Virus record (IMG/VR): IMGVR_UViG_2870879507_000003
From: a virus
Direction: 5' to 3' (one strand)
DNA: 30,371 nucleotides
A model generated the notes under the pieces. That model searched no databases, was not told where the DNA came from, and worked only from the letters and a program-made list of their open reading frames with translations. The position numbers and the translations under genes are program-made. Each line of letters begins with the position of its first letter. Within the stretch, counting starts at the first letter, position 1. Shown one piece after another: positions 4,054-16,668 of the stretch.

Positions 4054-4243
4054 GCACCCCCAGCCACATGACCACACCTTCTGGAGCGCCCCCTGCCGCT
4101 GCGGGCACAGTGTCCTGCAGCCCGTCAAGCGGACCCGCATGGAGGGCCGGGGTGTCTGGATCCGGTGCATCGAGTGCGACCAGATCAACTGGGCGACCGA
4201 CATCGCGGGCCAGCGCAAGGACATCCGGGAGGACTGGCGATGA
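4040..4243 (+). CDS. Small Cys-motif protein (CRCG...CIEC)
   Basis: GTG start uncertain; stop overlaps ATG of GNAT gene. Confidence 0.45.
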   Translation: MGGREHPQPHDHTFWSAPCRCGHSVLQPVKRTRMEGRGVWIRCIECDQINWATDIAGQRKDIREDWR

Positions 4244-4893
4244 GCATGGCCGCCACGACTGACACATCGCGGACGACAGATCCGATCACTGTCCAGGCCG
4301 CCACCGACCTCTCCGACCTCCGCGATGTCGCCCGGCAGTGGCATCATTGGTTCGGCGCAGAGTACACTCACAACAGCCTACCCCGCCCACTCGCGAGGAT
4401 CGCCGGCTGGCTCGACGAAGACGAACCGCCACTCGACGCTCTGGCCGTCGTCGCCAAACACGGCCCTGTCTCGGTAGGCTGGGGCCTCGTCATCTACGAC
4501 AGCCGCGAGGAGACGATCGACGAACTCCCACCTGGGTCATACGATGCTGAGGCGCTCGTGACTGGTCCCTCGGGTTGGCTCGTGCTGGGCGTCGTCGATC
4601 GAGCCTGGCGCGGGCGCGGGATCGGCCGCCGGCTGTTCGAGCACCGTCTCGCGTGGCTCGCCGACAAAGACCCCGCGGTCGTCGTCGGGATGAGCTGGGA
4701 TCGCGACGGCCCCACGTCCCGGCCGCTATTCGAGAGCAACGGATTCCACCCAATCCAATCTTACCCGGGCTTCTACGGGACGGAGATGTCTAACCGCACG
4801 GCCTGCCCGGACTGTGGGGCGACGCCGAGTAACGATGTGTCGTGTGGCTGTGACGCGACGCTGTGGGCGATCGACGGCGGTGATTTGACATGA
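4240..4893 (+). CDS. GNAT family N-acetyltransferase with C-terminal Cys motif
   Basis: Acetyl-CoA motif A VVDRAWRGRGIGRRL, motif B SRPLFESNGF; CPDCG...CGC tail; ATG at 4240. Confidence 0.85.
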   Translation: MSMAATTDTSRTTDPITVQAATDLSDLRDVARQWHHWFGAEYTHNSLPRPLARIAGWLDEDEPPLDALAVVAKHGPVSVGWGLVIYDSREETIDELPPGSYDAEALVTGPSGWLVLGVVDRAWRGRGIGRRLFEHRLAWLADKDPAVVVGMSWDRDGPTSRPLFESNGFHPIQSYPGFYGTEMSNRTACPDCGATPSNDVSCGCDATLWAIDGGDLT

Positions 4894-5135
4894 GCAACAC
4901 CGAGCCGTTCCCGATCGAGGACGATCGCGTCGAAGCACTCCCACACTCGGACAAGCTGGTCTACCTCGCGCTGCAACACCAGGGCCCGGCGACCCGCTCG
5001 GAACTCGTCCACGCGACGGGCGTCTCCCCGCGGACGGTCTCGGACGCGCTGGACCGTCTCGCCGAGGCTGGCGTCGTCGAGTGTCGCCCCCACACCGACG
5101 ATGGGCGCAAGCACTGCTACGGCCTGGCCGATTGA
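4890..5135 (+). CDS. Archaeal HTH transcriptional regulator (TrmB/MarR-like wHTH)
   Basis: LPHSDKLVYLAL..GPATRSEL...TGVSPRTVSDALDRLAEAGVV...DGRKHCY matches the common haloarchaeal small wHTH pattern. Confidence 0.85.
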   Translation: MSNTEPFPIEDDRVEALPHSDKLVYLALQHQGPATRSELVHATGVSPRTVSDALDRLAEAGVVECRPHTDDGRKHCYGLAD

Positions 5136-6045: not shown

Positions 6046-6118
6046 GGACTCGTAGCGCAACCGGGAGCGCACCCGCCTGAAGACGGGGCAATCGGCGGTT
6101 CGAATCCGTCCGGGTCCA
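6046..6118 (+). tRNA. tRNA-Phe(GAA), virus-encoded, with atypical anticodon stem
   Basis: Acceptor GGACTCG/CGGGTCC+A; D arm GCGC-AACCGGGA-GCGC; anticodon loop CT-GAA-GA; T arm GGCGG-TTCGAAT-CCGTC; 73 nt; G30.G40 and C31.C39 mismatches. Confidence 0.75.
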
Positions 6119-7256: not shown

Positions 7257-7481
7257 ATGTCTCGGACCACGATCTCCGTCCCCGATTCGCTGTTCGACCG
7301 CCTTGAGGGCTGCAAGCGCGAGGACGAGTCGTGGCCGGAATCGCTCGAACGGGCGGCTGACGCCCTGGAATCGGCAGACGGCGATAGTGAACGCACAATG
7401 GACGCACTTACCACCGACCACATCGACGACATCGCCCGTGCGACGGCCGACGAGGTCGAAAATCGCATGGCGCGACGGTGA
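7257..7481 (+). CDS. Ribbon-helix-helix (CopG/VapB-like) DNA-binding protein
   Basis: MSRTTISVPDSLFDRLEGCKREDESW..SLER matches haloarchaeal RHH pattern. Confidence 0.75.
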   Translation: MSRTTISVPDSLFDRLEGCKREDESWPESLERAADALESADGDSERTMDALTTDHIDDIARATADEVENRMARR

Positions 7482-7508: not shown

Positions 7509-7904
7509 ATGGCTGAGATCTTCGTCGAGCCGAATGCCACGGCCCGGCGACTCCGGAAGTACGTTCGTGACCACCCGGACGTCCGGAAAGACGAGTACGA
7601 CCACTATGACGACCCCGTCGAGGGCGCGTGCTACGTCCTCGCCGAGGCGTACTTCCACGCCCGCGGTGGCGAAGACAGCGGTCTCGAGGTTTACCGCCTC
7701 GACTGGAGCGATATCTACAACGAGGCGACTGGCGCGCACTGGTTTCTCCGCGAGGACGGCACAATCGTCGACCTGTCGCTCCCGACGCCCGATCACGGCG
7801 ATGGCGTCCCCTGGGAGCAGGCCCGCCATCGGGCGTTCATCACTGGCTACGAGCCGTCAAATCGGACACAGCGCGTCCTGCAGGCGCTGGATCTCACCCC
7901 ATAG
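7509..7904 (+). CDS. Hypothetical protein with possible Cys-His-Asp (papain/transglutaminase-like) triad
   Basis: GACYVLAEAY ... AHWFL ... IVDLS order of C, H, D. Confidence 0.6.
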   Translation: MAEIFVEPNATARRLRKYVRDHPDVRKDEYDHYDDPVEGACYVLAEAYFHARGGEDSGLEVYRLDWSDIYNEATGAHWFLREDGTIVDLSLPTPDHGDGVPWEQARHRAFITGYEPSNRTQRVLQALDLTP

Positions 7905-9535: not shown

Positions 9536-11251
9536 GTGAGCACGACCACGCCGCCAGGGGCCCAATCGTCACGACCAGTCGCGGCGCCGCTGGATAGCAT
9601 CGGCGGCCCCGACGTCGCCGAGATGGTCCGGACGCACCTCGAGGAGGGCACGGAGCGCGTCCATCCGCTCCCGTTTTCGATCGCCCATTTGGACTCTCGG
9701 ACCGCGCTCGCCCCACCGCCACACCTCATCGACTGGTACAACCAAATTGCGGCAGCCGTCTTCGACGAGACAGCACCCAAGAACCTGGCCCTGTTCGGCC
9801 CGCGCAACTACGGGAAGACGGTTTCGACGATCGACATCACGCCGGCGTGGCTGGCGACGCGCTTCCCAGAGATCCGGATGGCGATCGTCTCCCACAAGAA
9901 AAAGCACGCCAACAAGCGGGCGAAGACGGCGGTCGCGTCGATCGAAGAGGCCTGCGACCGGTACAACATTCCGGTCTACGACTCTTCGAAGACGACGATC
10001 CAGCTCGAGGCTGGCCGGCAGAACATCGAGCCGACGCTCGAGCCGCTGTCGATCCGGACGTCCGATACGGGCTCGCACTACGACGTCATCATCTACGACG
10101 ACATCGCGACGCTGACCAACCAGACGACGGCGCTCCGAGACACCATCTCGGAGAACTTCGAGGAGTTCACCGACAACGTCGCGGCCAAGCGCGGGGCGAC
10201 CTGCCTCCCCCACAAGAGCGTCAACATCGTCATCGGGACGCGCAAGACACCCGAGGACGTCTACCGCGAGCACATCCTCGCGACGAACACGCCGGAGTGG
10301 GACGGCCACATTGCCCGCGGGACGTCGCAGCCGGGCTGGGCAGCGCGCGTCTGGCGGGCGACGCCGGACTGGCACGTCATCGAGAACGAGGAGTACGTCG
10401 TTCACGGGACCGACGGCAACGTCTACGAGACGTTGCGGGATGTCCCCGACGATGTCGACGTGATCGACGACGGCATCCGCCCGGCCGAGGGGATCGACTT
10501 CCGGACGCTCTGGCCGGCCTTCGAGCGCCCGGAAACGCTGTTGACGAAGGTCGTCGCGAAGTCGGGCTCAGCGGGGCTCTGGCGGGCGGAGAACCAGCAG
10601 AACCCTGAGGCAGCCGTCGGGCGCGTCCTCAATCTTGACTGGCTCCGATTCGTCGACCCGATCCCCCGAAAGGACTGGGATGCCTACGAGTGGTACGCGG
10701 GTCTGGACTTCGCGAACCCCGACAACCTGGCGGCCGCGGAGCGCGGCGAGTCGGACTACTGGGCCCTGGCCGTCTACGCCTACGATCGCGATCTCGACCA
10801 GGAGTACGCGGTCGACGTCTGGCGCGACCGCGGTTACATGTGGAGCGAAGCCGCGACGGACTTCGTCGCGGTCCACCTGGCGGACTACCCGGTTGGGGAG
10901 CTCCTCGTCGAGTCCAACTTCGAGGGTGGCGAGATCGCAGAGACAATCGCCGACGCGGCGACCTACGAGGACGCCGACGTTACAGTACCGGACTTCACCG
11001 TGACACCGACGGACTCGGATGGTGAGAAGGAACAGCGCTTGCACCGCCTGGCCAACCGCTTCCAGCAGGGCAAAGTCAAGATCGCGAGCGAGGAGAACGA
11101 GCGCTGGGAGTCGTTCATCCGCGAGGAGTGGCTGCCGTTCCCCGATGCGGCTCACGACGACCGCTTCGACGCCCTCGAGATCGCTTCGCGTGGCCCGGCC
11201 CAGGCGGTCGATCGTGCGTCGGGCGACGACTTCGAACACGTCGACTGGTAA
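9536..11251 (+). CDS. terL: Terminase large subunit
   Basis: Walker A LFGPRNYGKT, Walker B YDVIIYDD, coupling IVIGTRK, RNase H-like YAGLDFA / LLVESN / HDDRFDA. Confidence 0.93.
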   Translation: MSTTTPPGAQSSRPVAAPLDSIGGPDVAEMVRTHLEEGTERVHPLPFSIAHLDSRTALAPPPHLIDWYNQIAAAVFDETAPKNLALFGPRNYGKTVSTIDITPAWLATRFPEIRMAIVSHKKKHANKRAKTAVASIEEACDRYNIPVYDSSKTTIQLEAGRQNIEPTLEPLSIRTSDTGSHYDVIIYDDIATLTNQTTALRDTISENFEEFTDNVAAKRGATCLPHKSVNIVIGTRKTPEDVYREHILATNTPEWDGHIARGTSQPGWAARVWRATPDWHVIENEEYVVHGTDGNVYETLRDVPDDVDVIDDGIRPAEGIDFRTLWPAFERPETLLTKVVAKSGSAGLWRAENQQNPEAAVGRVLNLDWLRFVDPIPRKDWDAYEWYAGLDFANPDNLAAAERGESDYWALAVYAYDRDLDQEYAVDVWRDRGYMWSEAATDFVAVHLADYPVGELLVESNFEGGEIAETIADAATYEDADVTVPDFTVTPTDSDGEKEQRLHRLANRFQQGKVKIASEENERWESFIREEWLPFPDAAHDDRFDALEIASRGPAQAVDRASGDDFEHVDW

Positions 11252-11257
11252 CTATCT

Positions 11258-12955
11258 ATGAGTGAGACAGATTCAGACCCATACGTGACGAAACTCGGCG
11301 AGGACGAGGGTGGCGAACTGGTCGCGATCGACTGGCCCGACGGGAACGTCGAGCAGTCACTCCGGGCACAGATCGCGTCGACGCCACAGTCCGAGAAGGG
11401 GCACGGCGATCGCCACACTGACGAAACCGGCCCCGTCCCACGCATGTCCACCGAGTCGGGTGTGTTCGGGAGTATCGACCTGCGGACGTTCTCACTCAAC
11501 TCGACAGAGCTGTCGACGACACTCAAACGCTTCCGTGACGAGATGTATCGGAACCAGTTTCCGGCCCTCGTCCCGTCGTTCACGGACCGCTGCACCAACT
11601 GCGGAACGGAGTACGACGAGGAACGCGACACCTGTGCCGTCTGTGGACACGACGAGTTCGAAGGCCCGTCGCGCGAGCAGAAACACTGGCTGTCGTCGTT
11701 TATCGAGGCGGTCAACGACGATGGCCAGTCGTTGCGGGATCTTTTCAAATACGAAGAGGACTACCAGTCGTGGCGCGGTGTCTCGACCGTCCTCGCCCGA
11801 CTCAAATACCAGCAGGTTACCGAGGAGACGACGGTCGCCGGCCGCGAGGTGACGTCGGCGACGCGCTGGGAACCCACCGAGATCAAAGAGCTCGTCCACG
11901 CCGATCCGACGCGCATCCAGCCCGTCCTCGACGACTACAACCGCCATGGCGGGTGGTGGACGTGTCCTGCCCATCGCGAAGAGTACTGGCCGGCGGACGC
12001 ACTCACCTTCGAGGACGACGCTGACTACCCCGAAGAGGTTTGCCCGGAGTGTCACGCCCAGCTCGCCGAGGTCGGCTACGTCGAGAGGAAACAGGGGTCG
12101 GGAGACGCGTTCCGGACGCTGTACCTCAAGCACGAGGTGATCGACTGGGCGCGACACTTCCCGATCCGGAACGGCCTCGACGGCCGGTCGCCGATCCGCC
12201 CGCTGGTCAAACTCCAGGCTATCCTGCAGTGGTCGCGCAATTACGACCTCCAGTACCTCTCGCCACAGAACGACCAGCAACTCCCGGACAAGTTCCTCGT
12301 CGCCTACGGCAAGAACATCACCGAGAGCCTGCGGGTGTCACTCGAGGACGAGGAGACCAAGAACCCATGGGAGGAGGGTCGTCTCACGTACGAGGGCCAC
12401 CCGGACGACGTCGAGATCGAGCTGCTGGATCTCTCGACGTCCTCGGGGATCAACGGCCGCCAGCCGATGGTCGAGCGCCTGATGTCCCAGATCCGGGCGA
12501 TGTTCGGCATCACGGACGCCTTCGAGAACGAACTCTCGGACACGGGCGGGCTCAACGCCGAGGGCACTCAGGTCGAGATCACCAACGCGGCGATCGCCGC
12601 CGCCCACCAGGATACGAAGGACAAGGCGCTGGACACGCTCTGCCGGTTGGTCGCCATGGTCCAGGGCCACTGCGACTGGGAGTTGGCCTACGTCGATCCC
12701 GAAAGCGAGGAAAAGTCACTGTCTCCGCTGGATATCCTCGAGGGCGTCCGCCTCGCCCAGGAGACCGGGACGCGCGTCATGATCGAGGATGGCTCACTCC
12801 GCGTCCCCGATCAGGAGATCGACCCGACCGAGGCCGGCGCCGCTGCAGAGCCACCTGGCAACGCGCCGGCGGACGAACCGCCACCCGAGAGTCAGCCCAG
12901 CGAGGCACCGCCTACTGACACCGATCAGCCGACTGACCCATCCACCAACACATGA
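11258..12955 (+). CDS. Portal protein with Cys-rich insertions
   Basis: Directly after TerL, 565 aa; GRSPIRPL, IRAMFGITD, acidic/Pro-rich C-terminus typical of portals. Confidence 0.85.
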   Translation: MSETDSDPYVTKLGEDEGGELVAIDWPDGNVEQSLRAQIASTPQSEKGHGDRHTDETGPVPRMSTESGVFGSIDLRTFSLNSTELSTTLKRFRDEMYRNQFPALVPSFTDRCTNCGTEYDEERDTCAVCGHDEFEGPSREQKHWLSSFIEAVNDDGQSLRDLFKYEEDYQSWRGVSTVLARLKYQQVTEETTVAGREVTSATRWEPTEIKELVHADPTRIQPVLDDYNRHGGWWTCPAHREEYWPADALTFEDDADYPEEVCPECHAQLAEVGYVERKQGSGDAFRTLYLKHEVIDWARHFPIRNGLDGRSPIRPLVKLQAILQWSRNYDLQYLSPQNDQQLPDKFLVAYGKNITESLRVSLEDEETKNPWEEGRLTYEGHPDDVEIELLDLSTSSGINGRQPMVERLMSQIRAMFGITDAFENELSDTGGLNAEGTQVEITNAAIAAAHQDTKDKALDTLCRLVAMVQGHCDWELAYVDPESEEKSLSPLDILEGVRLAQETGTRVMIEDGSLRVPDQEIDPTEAGAAAEPPGNAPADEPPPESQPSEAPPTDTDQPTDPSTNT

Positions 12956-13374: not shown

Positions 13375-14268
13375 ATGCCCATTCAAGTAGTCAACCAGAA
13401 CGTTGCGAGTGGCCACTCGGCGGTCGGCGAACACGTCGACCCCAGCGGCCCGGTCAAGGACCGCCGCGTCACGCGCGAGGACGTCCCCGACGCGTGGGAG
13501 GAGCCGGTCTTCGAGGCTGAGAACTTCATCATCGAGGGGCCGGCCAGCGTCGAGATCGTCGACCGGTCGGGTCAGCAGATCCAGATGGATGCCGTCGCGG
13601 ACGCCCTCGAGCGCTTCCTCGAGAGTGATCGTGAGCCGGGCATCATCTCCGTCAAGCACGAGGATGTCCCCGTGGGCGTCCCGGTCTGGGAATGGGAGAC
13701 TGACGAGGGGCACTGGTACGAAACGACCGTCGGCGACGACGAGTTCACGCTGGTCGCCAACCTCGGCAACGAGACGACGAAGTCCAAGCTGGCGCGGATG
13801 CGCTGTCTCAACGGCGACTACGACGGCTACTCCGTGACGGTCTACTCGAATCAGGAACACCAGCAGCCCGACGGAACCCGTGTCACGGTCGACTGCGACC
13901 TCCACGCCGTCACGCTGGGCAACGAGGAGATGCTGATGAACCCTGAGGCCGACGACGTCTCCGTCGTGGACTTCAAGGCTGGCGGGCCGCTCGCCGCGGC
14001 GATCCAGCGCCGACTGCGACGGCGTAACTCCGTGGTCGGCCGAATCGAGCAGAAGCTGTCCGAGACCGGTATCGACCGGAAGCAGTACCCCGACGAGTTC
14101 CCCTTCGAGGGCGTCACCGAGTGCAAGCGCCACGTCGAGCAGGACGACGACTTCGACGTCGACGATCCGGGTGCGTTCTGTGCCGAGTGGGTCCGCGAAG
14201 TCAAGGGCGAGGAGCCGGCCGCCGATCAGAACACCCTCGAAAGCAAAGTTCTCGAACACCTCGACTGA
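13375..14268 (+). CDS. Putative prohead maturation protease
   Basis: IIEGPASVEIVDRSGQQI...ISVKHEDVPVG...YDGYSV pattern of HK97/XkdF-like capsid proteases; between portal and scaffold. Confidence 0.75.
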   Translation: MPIQVVNQNVASGHSAVGEHVDPSGPVKDRRVTREDVPDAWEEPVFEAENFIIEGPASVEIVDRSGQQIQMDAVADALERFLESDREPGIISVKHEDVPVGVPVWEWETDEGHWYETTVGDDEFTLVANLGNETTKSKLARMRCLNGDYDGYSVTVYSNQEHQQPDGTRVTVDCDLHAVTLGNEEMLMNPEADDVSVVDFKAGGPLAAAIQRRLRRRNSVVGRIEQKLSETGIDRKQYPDEFPFEGVTECKRHVEQDDDFDVDDPGAFCAEWVREVKGEEPAADQNTLESKVLEHLD

Positions 14269-14276
14269 CGACACTC

Positions 14277-14313
14277 CCCGATGACGGGACGGCAGGCCAC
14301 CGTCGCCAGAGGG
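14277..14313 (+). ncRNA. Putative kink-turn RNA motif upstream of scaffold/capsid genes
   Basis: CCC(14277-79)-GAT bulge-GA(14283-84) ... GACGG/CCGTC hairpin ... GA(14309-10)-GGG(14311-13). Confidence 0.5.
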
Positions 14314-14335
14314 ACCATGGCCGTGGGACCCATGT

Positions 14336-15442
14336 ATGGGATTCTTTAGTTCGACTGACACCGTTGACGGGAGAGCCCGCGCTGCGCTGGGCGACCTGCC
14401 GGAGGACCCCGCACCGTTCGAGATCCTCCGTGCGGTCGACCAGAAGGCGGGCGACGCCGTCGACCGAGACGACGTCGTAGCGACGATGCGCGATCTGGAC
14501 GACGAGATCGACGCGAAGCTGGCGGCCGTCGAGGATACCACCGTCGACCAGAAGGACATGCGCGACGCGGCGAACACGATCGCCGATCGCACGCCGCTGG
14601 CCTATCCTGGCGCGGTGGAGCTGCTCTCGGCGGTCGTCGAGAGCGTCGAGGCAATGGATCCGACGGTCTTCGTCGACGCGTTCGACAGCGCGACCGCTGG
14701 CGAGCATCTCGACGAAGACGCCGTCGATCAGAACGCCGGCGGCGATGGCGCTGCCGGCCCCGACGATGACGATGTCGACCAGAACGCGCAGCCAGACACC
14801 ACCGATTCAACCATGAGCGACGACACTCCGAACGACACCGAGAGTACCGACCCCGACGCGTCCGGCGGCGATCCCGGCGACGTCGACCAGAAGCAGGAGA
14901 CCGGAGACGGCGGCGAAGAGATGGCCCCGATCGACCTCGTCGAAGAGGTCGGCGGGTCCGACGCCGCCGACACCGTCGAGAACTACGCCGAGTCCGTGGG
15001 CAAGGACGTCCAGGACGCAGCCGCCGAGTGGATCGCCGAAAACGTCCCCGGCGTCACCGTCGAGGGCTACGGCGAGGGCGGCGGTGGCGACACCGCGCCC
15101 GGTGGCGGCGAGCCCGGGCAGGCGGACATGAACGCCGGCGCCGAACACGACCGGACCGCGCCCGAGGCGGACCAGATGGCCAATGCCGACCAGAAGCTCG
15201 CCAACGTCGACCTCAACGAGCGGGTGGCCGAGGCGGTCACCAGCGACGAGGTCATCGACGAGATGGCCGGCGCGGTCGCCCAGAAGATGGCCACCAACGA
15301 CGAACTCGCTGACGAGCTCGTCGAGACGGTCGACCAGAAGGGCGACTTCGCGACGACCGACGACACCGTCGTGACGGCGCCGGGTACCGAATCGAAGACC
15401 GTCGACGAAGCGGGCGCGATCACGGGAGGTGACGACGAATGA
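14336..15442 (+). CDS. Putative capsid scaffolding protein
   Basis: Very acidic, low-complexity, between protease and MCP; repeated VDQK/VDQN motifs; start codon uncertain. Confidence 0.7.
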   Translation: MGFFSSTDTVDGRARAALGDLPEDPAPFEILRAVDQKAGDAVDRDDVVATMRDLDDEIDAKLAAVEDTTVDQKDMRDAANTIADRTPLAYPGAVELLSAVVESVEAMDPTVFVDAFDSATAGEHLDEDAVDQNAGGDGAAGPDDDDVDQNAQPDTTDSTMSDDTPNDTESTDPDASGGDPGDVDQKQETGDGGEEMAPIDLVEEVGGSDAADTVENYAESVGKDVQDAAAEWIAENVPGVTVEGYGEGGGGDTAPGGGEPGQADMNAGAEHDRTAPEADQMANADQKLANVDLNERVAEAVTSDEVIDEMAGAVAQKMATNDELADELVETVDQKGDFATTDDTVVTAPGTESKTVDEAGAITGGDDE

Positions 15443-16668
15443 GCGCCCACCCGATGCACGGCTACGCCGGCGGCAACAGTCCCGAGCGGTTCCTCGAGTC
15501 GAACGTCGTCGACGGCGTCCCGATGGACTGGGACGACGGCCTGCTCCAGCGAGCGCAGTACGACACGACGACCGACGCCCACGTCAACGCCATCTACACG
15601 GCGACGCTGTACGCCCAGTACAACGGCGAACACGAGTGGTACAACGCGCTGACGCAGGTCGATCGCTTCAACGCCTCGCTCGAGGGGCCGGTCACGGCGA
15701 AGGCCTTCCGCGCGGCGACGAACCCCGTCGACCTGCAGACTCACCCGGAGGGCGGCCAGGTCCCCGACGGCCAGACGATGGGCGTCGAAGACGTCGAGTA
15801 CGACCCCAAGCGGTCGGACTCCGTCATCGAAGTGTCCGACCTGCAGCAGATCTACGCGGCGATCGAGGACGCCGTCGGCTTCGAGGAGTTCTGGGAGCTG
15901 CAGCAGGACCAGCTCGACCTGGCGATCGACCGCGACGGTATCGCCGGCGCGATCTATCAGGGCGACCCCGCCTACTCGGCCACCGACGAGATCACGCCGC
16001 TGGACCGGGCGATCGCCGCCAGCGACGAGGAGGACAACGCGACCGACCCCAACGGCAACGCCTACAACGCCGGTGATCTCGACTACGGGACCGTCGAGCG
16101 GGCGACCGACACCTGGGCCGACTCCTACGTCGACCACAACGGCGCGTCGGGTCCGCGGCAGCTGACGAACGACCTCTTTACGTCGTTCCTGAACTCGTTC
16201 AACGAGTTCGCCGACGTCGACGTCTACAACGACACGGCGATCCTGACGGGCCACGACACCGCGGGCGTCCTCTCGGATCTGGCGGCCGACCGGAACAACG
16301 TTCGCAACCAGGCCGCGATGGCGGACTACGTCCAGGAAGAGGTCGGCGACGGGTCGACGATTCGCGGCCTCTCCGGGACGGCCCGGTACCGCGATTACGA
16401 CGGCATCCCGATCATCGGGAACCAGCACGCCGTCAAGCACGGCGACATCTCGTCGGTCTTCTTGATCCCGACGGACACCATCCGCGGCCAGCCCCGCATC
16501 GCCATCGAGCAGTACGCCGAGCCGTACACGGAGACGGCCGGGCGCGGCCAGACCCAGGGGTACCTCGCGACGGGCAACTACCGCGACGAGGCGCTGATGG
16601 TCCTCAACCATGAGACCGTGGTCCGCGACTTCGCCAGCTGTGGCAAACTCCGGGACCTGAGCGAGTAA
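15439..16668 (+). CDS. Major capsid protein (HK97 fold expected)
   Basis: 409 aa, position after scaffold, strongest C/G-ending codon bias; NAIYTATLYAQYN, YDGIPII, C-terminal GKLRDL. Confidence 0.85.
   Translation: MSAHPMHGYAGGNSPERFLESNVVDGVPMDWDDGLLQRAQYDTTTDAHVNAIYTATLYAQYNGEHEWYNALTQVDRFNASLEGPVTAKAFRAATNPVDLQTHPEGGQVPDGQTMGVEDVEYDPKRSDSVIEVSDLQQIYAAIEDAVGFEEFWELQQDQLDLAIDRDGIAGAIYQGDPAYSATDEITPLDRAIAASDEEDNATDPNGNAYNAGDLDYGTVERATDTWADSYVDHNGASGPRQLTNDLFTSFLNSFNEFADVDVYNDTAILTGHDTAGVLSDLAADRNNVRNQAAMADYVQEEVGDGSTIRGLSGTARYRDYDGIPIIGNQHAVKHGDISSVFLIPTDTIRGQPRIAIEQYAEPYTETAGRGQTQGYLATGNYRDEALMVLNHETVVRDFASCGKLRDLSE

Follow-up and report, generated by a model that had tools for sequence, protein, structure and literature searches.

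The stretch of DNA analysed here (30,371 nt, IMG/VR record IMGVR_UViG_2870879507_000003; referred to as the window) comes from a haloarchaeal tailed (pro)virus, and its + strand carries every predicted gene. Within the head module (Table 1), neighbouring genes overlap or lie 2-6 nt apart, except that 67 nt (14269-14335) separate the prohead protease gene from a scaffold-like gene; this is the sole gap of more than 60 nt in the module. The start assigned to the scaffold gene is supported by tblastn alignments, which begin at residue 1 in all relatives, and by an N-terminus, MGFF(S/G)STD, that is conserved among them. The next gene is presumed to encode the major capsid protein (MCP), given the gene order and an ESM-Atlas lead to SU10_MCP clusters; a search of PDB sequences with the MCP profile and the protease gave no match, the AlphaFold model of the MCP has a pLDDT of 29, and neither the DNA nor the MCP protein matched anything among INPHARED phages. 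(Elsewhere in the window, the sole Rfam match at gathering score is a tRNA gene at 6046-6118 (47.5 bits), which sits among the early genes and not at a window end. Early-region genes recognized by Pfam, at 698-2125, 4165-4893, 4890-5135 and 7257-7481, are of the N6/N4 DNA methylase (4.6e-41), GNAT acetyltransferase, small MarR/TrmB-type winged-helix and VapB/RHH-like types.)

Table 1. Head-module genes, parts of the leader element, and corresponding leaders in the sister clade. Positions are those of the window unless a relative is named.
Feature	Position	Strand	Remarks
Terminase large subunit	9536-11251	+	
Portal	11258-12955	+	
138-aa protein	between portal and prohead protease	+	
Prohead protease gene	13375-14268	+	PHROG: phrog_32381, 1.9e-109; head maturation protease phrog_23555, 1.2e-7
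Protease stop codon UGA	14266-14268	+	from the ORF list
P1 5' strand (C helix), CCC	14277-14279	+	pairs with GGG 14311-14313
Bulge GAU (L1-L3)	14280-14282	+	invariant in 20 distinct relatives
G1b, A2b of the tandem sheared G.A/A.G	14283-14284	+	invariant, 20/20
3b (C14285) and 5' strand of NC helix/P2	14285-14292	+	3b=C in 19/20; P2 covaries
P2 terminal loop CAGGCCA (GGCC at 14295-98)	14293-14299	+	GGCC invariant in the GAUGA type; GACC in the sister clade
P2/NC helix 3' strand (G14305 bulged) and 3n (A14308)	14300-14308	+	
G2n, A1n	14309-14310	+	A1n 20/20; G2n 15/20
P1 3' strand, GGG	14311-14313	+	pairs with CCC
P3 hairpin, CCAU/GGCC loop (14319-22)/GUGG	14315-14326	+	stem covariation
Scaffold-like gene, 368 aa	14336-15442	+	
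Scaffold AUG	14336-14338	+	9 nt past P3; tblastn alignments and conserved N-terminus
Presumed MCP	15439-16668	+	gene order and ESM-Atlas lead
Sister-clade leaders	L005:2889-2975; L006:2899-2987; L018:397-487; L029:1663-1751; L017:368-457		

A preliminary description of this DNA had placed a kink-turn (k-turn) in the gap RNA at 14277-14313, and every pairing that it listed is found base for base in the sequence. Beyond P1 and the three-nucleotide bulge lie the tandem pairs G14283.A14310 and A14284.G14309, then C14285.A14308 at position 3b.3n, and then the NC helix, which runs through G14286-C14307 and G14287-C14306 into GACGG (14288-92) paired with CCGUC (14300-04). The coordinates thus enclosed a real pairing, but they covered only part of the element, which reaches about 14326; the P3 hairpin and a complementarity between two loops had been missed. 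(P1 has an alternative register, U14275-C14278 with a 4-nt bulge, and such a register is available in some of the related sequences.) Taken by itself, the single sequence gives no statistical reason to single out this site: the MFE z-score of the gap is +0.66, folding being no better than that of shuffles, and a generic k-turn descriptor matches at 9 sites of the window, compared with 7.9 ± 3.0 matches in a set of 100 dinucleotide shuffles, so the k-turn pattern is not above chance. (The descriptor demands five consecutive NC-stem pairs, and the reported site itself is therefore not picked up.) It is conservation across relatives, rather than single-sequence statistics, that makes the element real, and on a comparison of sequences this conservation is far above chance.

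Homologous head modules were collected by querying IMG/VR, GTDB genomes and JGI metagenomes with the MCP, and contigs carrying homologues of the scaffold protein were added; the hosts named in the records are Haloferax, Halorubrum, Halobellus, Natrarchaeobius and Halomicroarcula. The protease-scaffold intergenic DNA of these modules comprises about 26 distinct sequences, 20 of the type seen in the window (the GAUGA type) and 6 of a sister clade, and in all of them the element occupies the same gene junction. The 20 sequences of GAUGA type all have a C-run, then the invariant GAUGA with C next to it (U in one), a hairpin whose loop holds GGCC, and an invariant A that leads into a G-run; another GGCC lies downstream in 19 of the 20. 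Consequently, the pattern CCCGAUGA...(G)A-GGG, whose conservation in related viruses the preliminary description had made decisive, is retained in these 20 distinct homologous regions. Identity to the window is 63-91% over the element, compared with 52-61% over the final 120 nt of the protease gene. P1 lies 6 to 42 nt past the protease stop codon, depending on the relative, which weakens a strict model of coupling.

Thermodynamic folding yields P1 enclosing an asymmetric internal loop and P2 in 8 of 11 sequences when folding is free, and in 10 of 11 when GAUGA is kept unpaired. A covariance model, built from four sequences and rebuilt from ten, recovers 18 distinct relatives at E <= 1e-7. (With the first model a second copy appeared at 7794-7837 on the - strand, at 20.4 bits and E about 0.004-0.007; it has GAUGG for GAUGA, lacks the GGCC loops, was lost with the ten-sequence model and was judged to be a chance match. 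An H/ACA-like RNA was likewise rejected, as an ACA follows P1 in some relatives only.) Covariation across homologous regions, the first check that had been proposed for the k-turn, is pronounced in P2, where both partners change in 5 of 6 pairs and pairing is kept in 99% of cells, a result reached by 0 of 500 shuffles; controls in which the partner strand is slid give 34-47% pairing. (The alignment was fitted to the model and hence leans toward the structure, but the same helices also come from unconstrained folding of single sequences.) P1 is C-G throughout the 18 model-aligned relatives and does not vary among close relatives. Its partners do change in step in L173 (GCC/GGC), L025 (CUCC/GGAG) and L177 (UCC/GGA). 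The first of these, whose scaffold protein is 42% identical, retains the whole layout with its covarying P1; L174, with a scaffold protein 40% identical, retains the k-turn part with a different loop. In L180 (1513-1545) an extra hairpin, GUGCUC-UUCG-GAGCAC, is inserted in the P2 loop just 5' of GGCC, a variable expansion of the sort known in bona fide structured RNAs.

Immediately downstream of P1, the P3 stem (14315-18 with 14323-26) varies in a compensatory manner as well: among 17 relatives, 4 of 4 pairs change on both sides, which 0 of 500 shuffles reach, and 75% of cells are paired, compared with 16-47% when the partner is slid. Its variants include ACAU/AUGU, ACAC/GUGU and UGU/ACA, with G.U intermediates in the window and in L003. 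In nearly all sequences P3 starts 0-1 nt after the 3' strand of P1, so that the two helices can stack, and we infer from the sequences that they do. The GGCC in the loop of P2 is complementary to the GGCC in the loop of P3. Within the GAUGA-type clade this GGCC/GGCC combination is invariant; in the sister clade GACC stands in the loop and, at the corresponding position downstream, GGUC, which amounts to one compensatory switch. A complement of 4-5 nt is not significant in any single sequence, and because the argument consists of one clade switch together with conservation, the contact between the P2 and P3 loops is best regarded as probable. The pairing may be a kissing contact, or a pseudoknot formed when P3 opens; a kiss of all 4 bp is sterically unfavourable for a GGCC tetraloop, and therefore P3 and the loop pairing may be alternative states.

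The same sequences could in principle act as DNA. In most relatives the DNA of the P3 region reads as a palindrome, perfect or nearly so, and the virus encodes winged-helix and RHH-type DNA binders, so that palindromes of up to 12 bp (of the ACATGGCCATGT type) together with the second TGGCCA might bind a dimeric DNA-binding protein, the RNA folds being incidental. This explanation is highly implausible. Fourteen cells of P2 are G.U, which would be A.C on the opposite strand, and therefore the sense-strand RNA is the selected object; two further G.U pairs in P3 are strand-specific in the same way. The P2 stem also varies freely in sequence while its pairing is retained, no palindromic partner exists for the invariant GAUGA or for the asymmetric loop, and a promoter-like element is absent nearby.

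The k-turn layout that had been noticed in the scaffold leader is conserved: none of the 20 sequences departs from G1b, A2b, A1n or the GAU bulge. P1, the C helix, consists of 3-5 C-G pairs adjoining the three-nucleotide bulge; position 3b.3n is non-Watson-Crick (C.A, C.C or U.G) in 19 of 20, L173 being the one sequence with U at 3b, together with G at 3n; and the adjoining 4b-4n pair covaries (G-C, U.G, A-U). The standard tandem G.A/A.G is present in 15 of 20. In the other five (L011, L024, L025, L178 and L180) 2n is A or C, and these same relatives carry an insertion of 3-4 nt on the n (non-bulged) strand, which is not standard for k-turns. Variation at 2n is known in non-standard k-turns of the Kt-23 type, and a k-turn with the G2nA substitution still folds within the SAM-I riboswitch, held by tertiary contacts (PMC4316175). 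The arrangement found here, with a three-nucleotide bulge after the C helix, tandem G.A/A.G pairs and an NC helix beyond a non-Watson-Crick 3b.3n, is that of a simple k-turn. It is quite likely that the element holds a genuine k-turn, and its kinked geometry is a prediction from the sequence signature.

A second hairpin, CCCG/AUGA/CGGG (14277-88), had been put forward as a competitor that could act as a switch. The hairpin exists and is used by the unconstrained MFE fold; it is possible in 15 of 20 relatives and absent or weak in the remaining 5, and changes at 4b (U in L023, A in L179) retain the NC-helix pair yet break the CCCG/CGGG stem.

Insight into the way in which such a k-turn would fold comes from rules laid down for other k-turns. 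According to PMC4382518 and PMC6298567, either C at 3b or G at 3n, but not both, permits folding in metal ions alone, and C:G at -1b:-1n favours it; riboswitch k-turns are of this ion-folding class, and the k-turns of U4, box C/D and l7ae leaders need protein. By these rules all 15 standard viral k-turns fall into the self-folding class, and so would 4 of the 5 non-standard ones if the rules extend to k-turns without G2n. (As parsed, L178 has both C at 3b and G at 3n, which would form a Watson-Crick pair.) The viral k-turn is accordingly predicted to fold in metal ions without protein. Together, the rule positions and the loop-loop complementarity suggest an architectural k-turn, one that would bend P2 toward the arm formed by P1 and P3, and an architectural role of this kind, as in riboswitches, fits the sequences better than an L7Ae-dependent switch.

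The L7Ae-dependent switch nevertheless deserves attention. It had been proposed at the outset that the virus may recruit host L7Ae to stabilise or tune the mRNA for scaffold and capsid. On this view L7Ae would bind the k-turn and thereby repress, activate or stabilise the message, and capsid output would depend on the pool of free L7Ae. The factor would have to come from the host, as Pfam detects no L7Ae-like protein encoded by the virus. Such binding is chemically plausible because the GAU bulge and GA of the b strand are the same as in the bulged strand of the k-turns in archaeal l7ae 5'-UTRs (PMC6298567). In addition, L7Ae folds and binds essentially every k-turn tested in PMC6298567, and it binds k-turns in several mRNAs and represses reporters (PMC5539422). 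However, C at 3b and C:G at -1b:-1n predict protein-independent folding of the viral k-turn, no Shine-Dalgarno sequence lies inside or beside the k-turn stem where it could be occluded, G2n is missing from five relatives, and the sister clade retains the rest of the element without a k-turn. Regulation through L7Ae is therefore rather unlikely.

The archaeal l7ae leaders themselves (Daume et al. 2017, PMC5539422; Huang, Ashraf and Lilley 2019, PMC6298567) are among the known systems closest to the viral element. Both are mRNA leader elements of archaea, and half of the l7ae leaders have a terminal loop on the NC helix, as the viral element does. In contrast to the viral element, with its C at 3b, C:G at -1b:-1n and no Shine-Dalgarno site, the l7ae-leader k-turns have unfavourable 3b:3n and -1b:-1n, fold only with L7Ae and overlap the Shine-Dalgarno sequence; folding without L7Ae is predicted not to occur for l7ae leaders and was shown not to occur for that of A. 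fulgidus. Neither of these two traits, protein-dependent folding and a Shine-Dalgarno sequence overlapped by the k-turn stem-loop, was found for the viral element, which also differs in its added hairpin with loop-loop complementarity, in being viral and in lying between two genes of an operon.

The SAM-I riboswitch offers a parallel in architecture. It shares with the viral element the ion-folding class of k-turn, and its k-turn bends a hairpin so that the terminal loop pairs with a remote strand (PMC4316175), the same arrangement that the viral sequences suggest. The tertiary contact of SAM-I tolerates substitution of G2n (same paper), which parallels the five viral relatives with A or C at 2n. 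The resemblance is one of architecture only. The viral element, of about 50 nt, has no Rfam riboswitch match, no multi-helix junction and no conserved ligand pocket; its conserved unpaired positions are confined to the k-turn and the GGCC loops, and the interacting loop is on the NC helix, whereas in SAM-I it is on the C helix.

A likeness to box C/D sRNAs (box C RUGAUGA, box D CUGA), whose k-turns are L7Ae-binding motifs, is also apparent. The viral GAUGA, which is CUGAUGA in L001 and L003, resembles box C, and the (C/A)GA of the n strand resembles box D minus its U. In box C/D k-turns the 3b.3n position is U.U, unlike the viral C.A or C.C, and -1b:-1n is G:C rather than C:G. Moreover, the viral element has a hairpin between the boxes and lacks C'/D' boxes and guide regions; no Rfam C/D family matches at the site, and an arrangement of boxes C, D', C' and D with guides of 10-12 nt was not found.

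The sister clade, in which GAUGA is missing (L005, L006, L007, L017, L018 and L029), has a fold of its own, with a closing helix CAGAA/UUCUG, a covarying hairpin A, and a hairpin B whose GACC loop faces the downstream GGUC. No consistent k-turn was found when this clade was examined for one, and the topology differs. Two invariant strands, AAAGAC and CGAUU, might there give rise to tandem G.A pairs. In L017 (355-457) the protease frame reads through the entire element to a conserved UGA. More distant relatives, with MCPs 35-39% identical, have the protease gene directly before the MCP gene, with neither a separate scaffold gene nor a gap. Two of their proteases (L020:68-1429 and L022:2806-4215, - strand) are 36% identical over about 200 aa and carry an acidic C-terminal extension of roughly 220 aa; each looks like a protease-scaffold fusion, and comparison of the acidic tail with the scaffold protein of the window gave no detectable similarity.

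Several simpler accounts of the gap were considered and rejected. Fusion of protease and scaffold by read-through or frameshifting is contradicted by gaps of 61-107 nt with all three remainders modulo 3. A conserved upstream ORF beginning at the AUG within GAUGA is contradicted by frames and peptides that differ among relatives, and by compensatory stem changes that alter its peptide. For an internal promoter, no conserved A/T-rich box was found upstream of the element in the relatives.

Taken together, the helices and the signature, compared among relatives, point to a folded RNA domain in the gap, about 50 nt long (14276-14326), as a cis-acting part of the scaffold leader. The translational context bears on what this domain might do. 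No Shine-Dalgarno motif is present upstream of the scaffold AUG, nor upstream of the portal, protease and 138-aa genes. The MCP gene, which overlaps the scaffold gene as AUGA, has a perfect one (GGAGGUGA, 15425-15432), 6 nt before its AUG and within the 3' end of the scaffold gene; GGAGG-type motifs (GGAGG(UGA)) are also carried by many other genes of the window. According to PMC3986360, Shine-Dalgarno sequences are not used at the 5'-UTRs of H. volcanii and are proposed to serve distal operon genes; given this usage, it is unusual for an internal gene to combine a structured leader of 67 nt with the lack of a Shine-Dalgarno sequence. Across the GAUGA-type clade the scaffold AUG lies 3-9 nt after P3. 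Since the mRNA would enter and leave the domain at one point with the AUG close by and no Shine-Dalgarno sequence, control of translation initiation of the scaffold gene is the most likely role, and the structured leader without a Shine-Dalgarno sequence, together with the distant relatives that have no gap, favours a role in translation of scaffold versus protease.

The mechanism can be pictured as follows. P3 would stack on P1 as one arm, with P2 as the other, and the k-turn would kink the two together so that their loops pair, as in the SAM-I riboswitch. If the k-turn folds in metal ions alone, the domain would always be folded in the haloarchaeal cytoplasm without L7Ae, with the mRNA entering and exiting at one point and the scaffold AUG 3-9 nt beyond. 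By positioning, shielding or coupling, the domain would then determine how often translation of the scaffold gene is initiated, and scaffold output would be tuned relative to the upstream protease gene. A folded domain that sets scaffold translation is the best explanation, to which we would give an even chance; against it stand the five relatives with A or C at 2n and an insertion, and the sister clade without the k-turn signature. In a bolder version, the self-folding k-turn would close a triangular RNA (P1/P3 arm, P2 arm and GGCC-GGCC) that serves as a protein-independent initiation device where protease stop meets scaffold start, ribosomes either shunting past the fold after terminating or joining de novo, like at an IRES. 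This version is distinctly unlikely. If true, this would be the first time that a structured translation-initiation element is described in an archaeal virus, and it would give a handle on the unexplained Shine-Dalgarno-independent initiation of haloarchaea.

The domain might instead act on mRNA stability. It lies at the boundary between low-copy (terminase, portal, protease) and high-copy (scaffold, MCP) genes, and a compact knotted fold directly upstream of the scaffold gene might block a 5'-3' exonuclease of the RNase J type, so that, on a transcript cut in the gap or decaying from its 5' side, the scaffold-MCP message would outlive the terminase-portal-protease part. A processed 5' end would also explain the missing motif, as H. 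volcanii 5'-UTRs need no Shine-Dalgarno sequence (PMC3986360). Such end protection is quite improbable: a stabiliser does not require the narrow spacing of 3-9 nt between domain and AUG, and neither a conserved cleavage motif nor a promoter-like A/T-rich box lies upstream.

Another possibility is an operator for a virus-encoded protein, with free scaffold or capsid protein, for example, binding the domain and repressing its own synthesis. The element is limited to this viral lineage and junction: among 151 haloarchaeal genomes the covariance model has two matches, both known proviruses. RNA type (GAUGA or sister) tracks viral clade, and the invariant single-stranded positions could be protein contacts. 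However, common descent alone would already link RNA type to clade, and Pfam detects no RNA-binding domain in the protease, scaffold or MCP, which leaves an operator very unlikely. Leader control of assembly genes is known in phages, and as in P22 scaffolding-protein autoregulation and T4 gene 32, a structured leader here lies upstream of a dose-matched assembly gene. Autoregulation by the P22 scaffolding protein reportedly acts after transcription, and the T4 gene 32 mRNA leader contains a pseudoknot. Sequences and hosts are unrelated to those of the viral element.

The lineage that carries the element is rare, with about 10 matches among the roughly 1,200 sampled genomes; a further 660 or so haloarchaeal genomes yielded one more provirus, with an intergenic sequence already known. 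Rfam 15 has no family at 14269-14335 even at E up to 10, and among the matches listed (at least 120) from an IMG/VR pattern scan for other contexts, the covariance model rates chance matches only. In the literature searched, no k-turn element or cis-regulatory RNA structure is described for archaeal viruses. The k-turn motif class and the presence of k-turns in archaeal leaders are already known; the viral setting, the self-folding class and the architecture of P3 and the complementary loops are new.

Very few cis-regulatory RNA structures are known in archaea, and this one is compact, with comparative support for a k-turn signature and loop-loop complementarity and no Rfam family. Its position in a tailed virus is at the switch from low-copy (protease) to high-copy (scaffold, capsid) genes. 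It provides a testable case of how a haloarchaeal ribosome starts at an internal gene without a Shine-Dalgarno sequence, and a test of whether a virus uses or merely tolerates L7Ae, the k-turn binder of its host. Cultured lysogens are available in Haloferax mucosum ATCC BAA-1512, Haloferax elongans ATCC BAA-1513 and Halobellus rufus CBA1103. The element is also a pitfall for annotation: in L176 (1501-1551) and L180 (1501-1575) gene callers take the AUG within GAUGA for the scaffold start, and the true N-terminus of the protein (MGFF.. or MNLF..) lies downstream of the called start.
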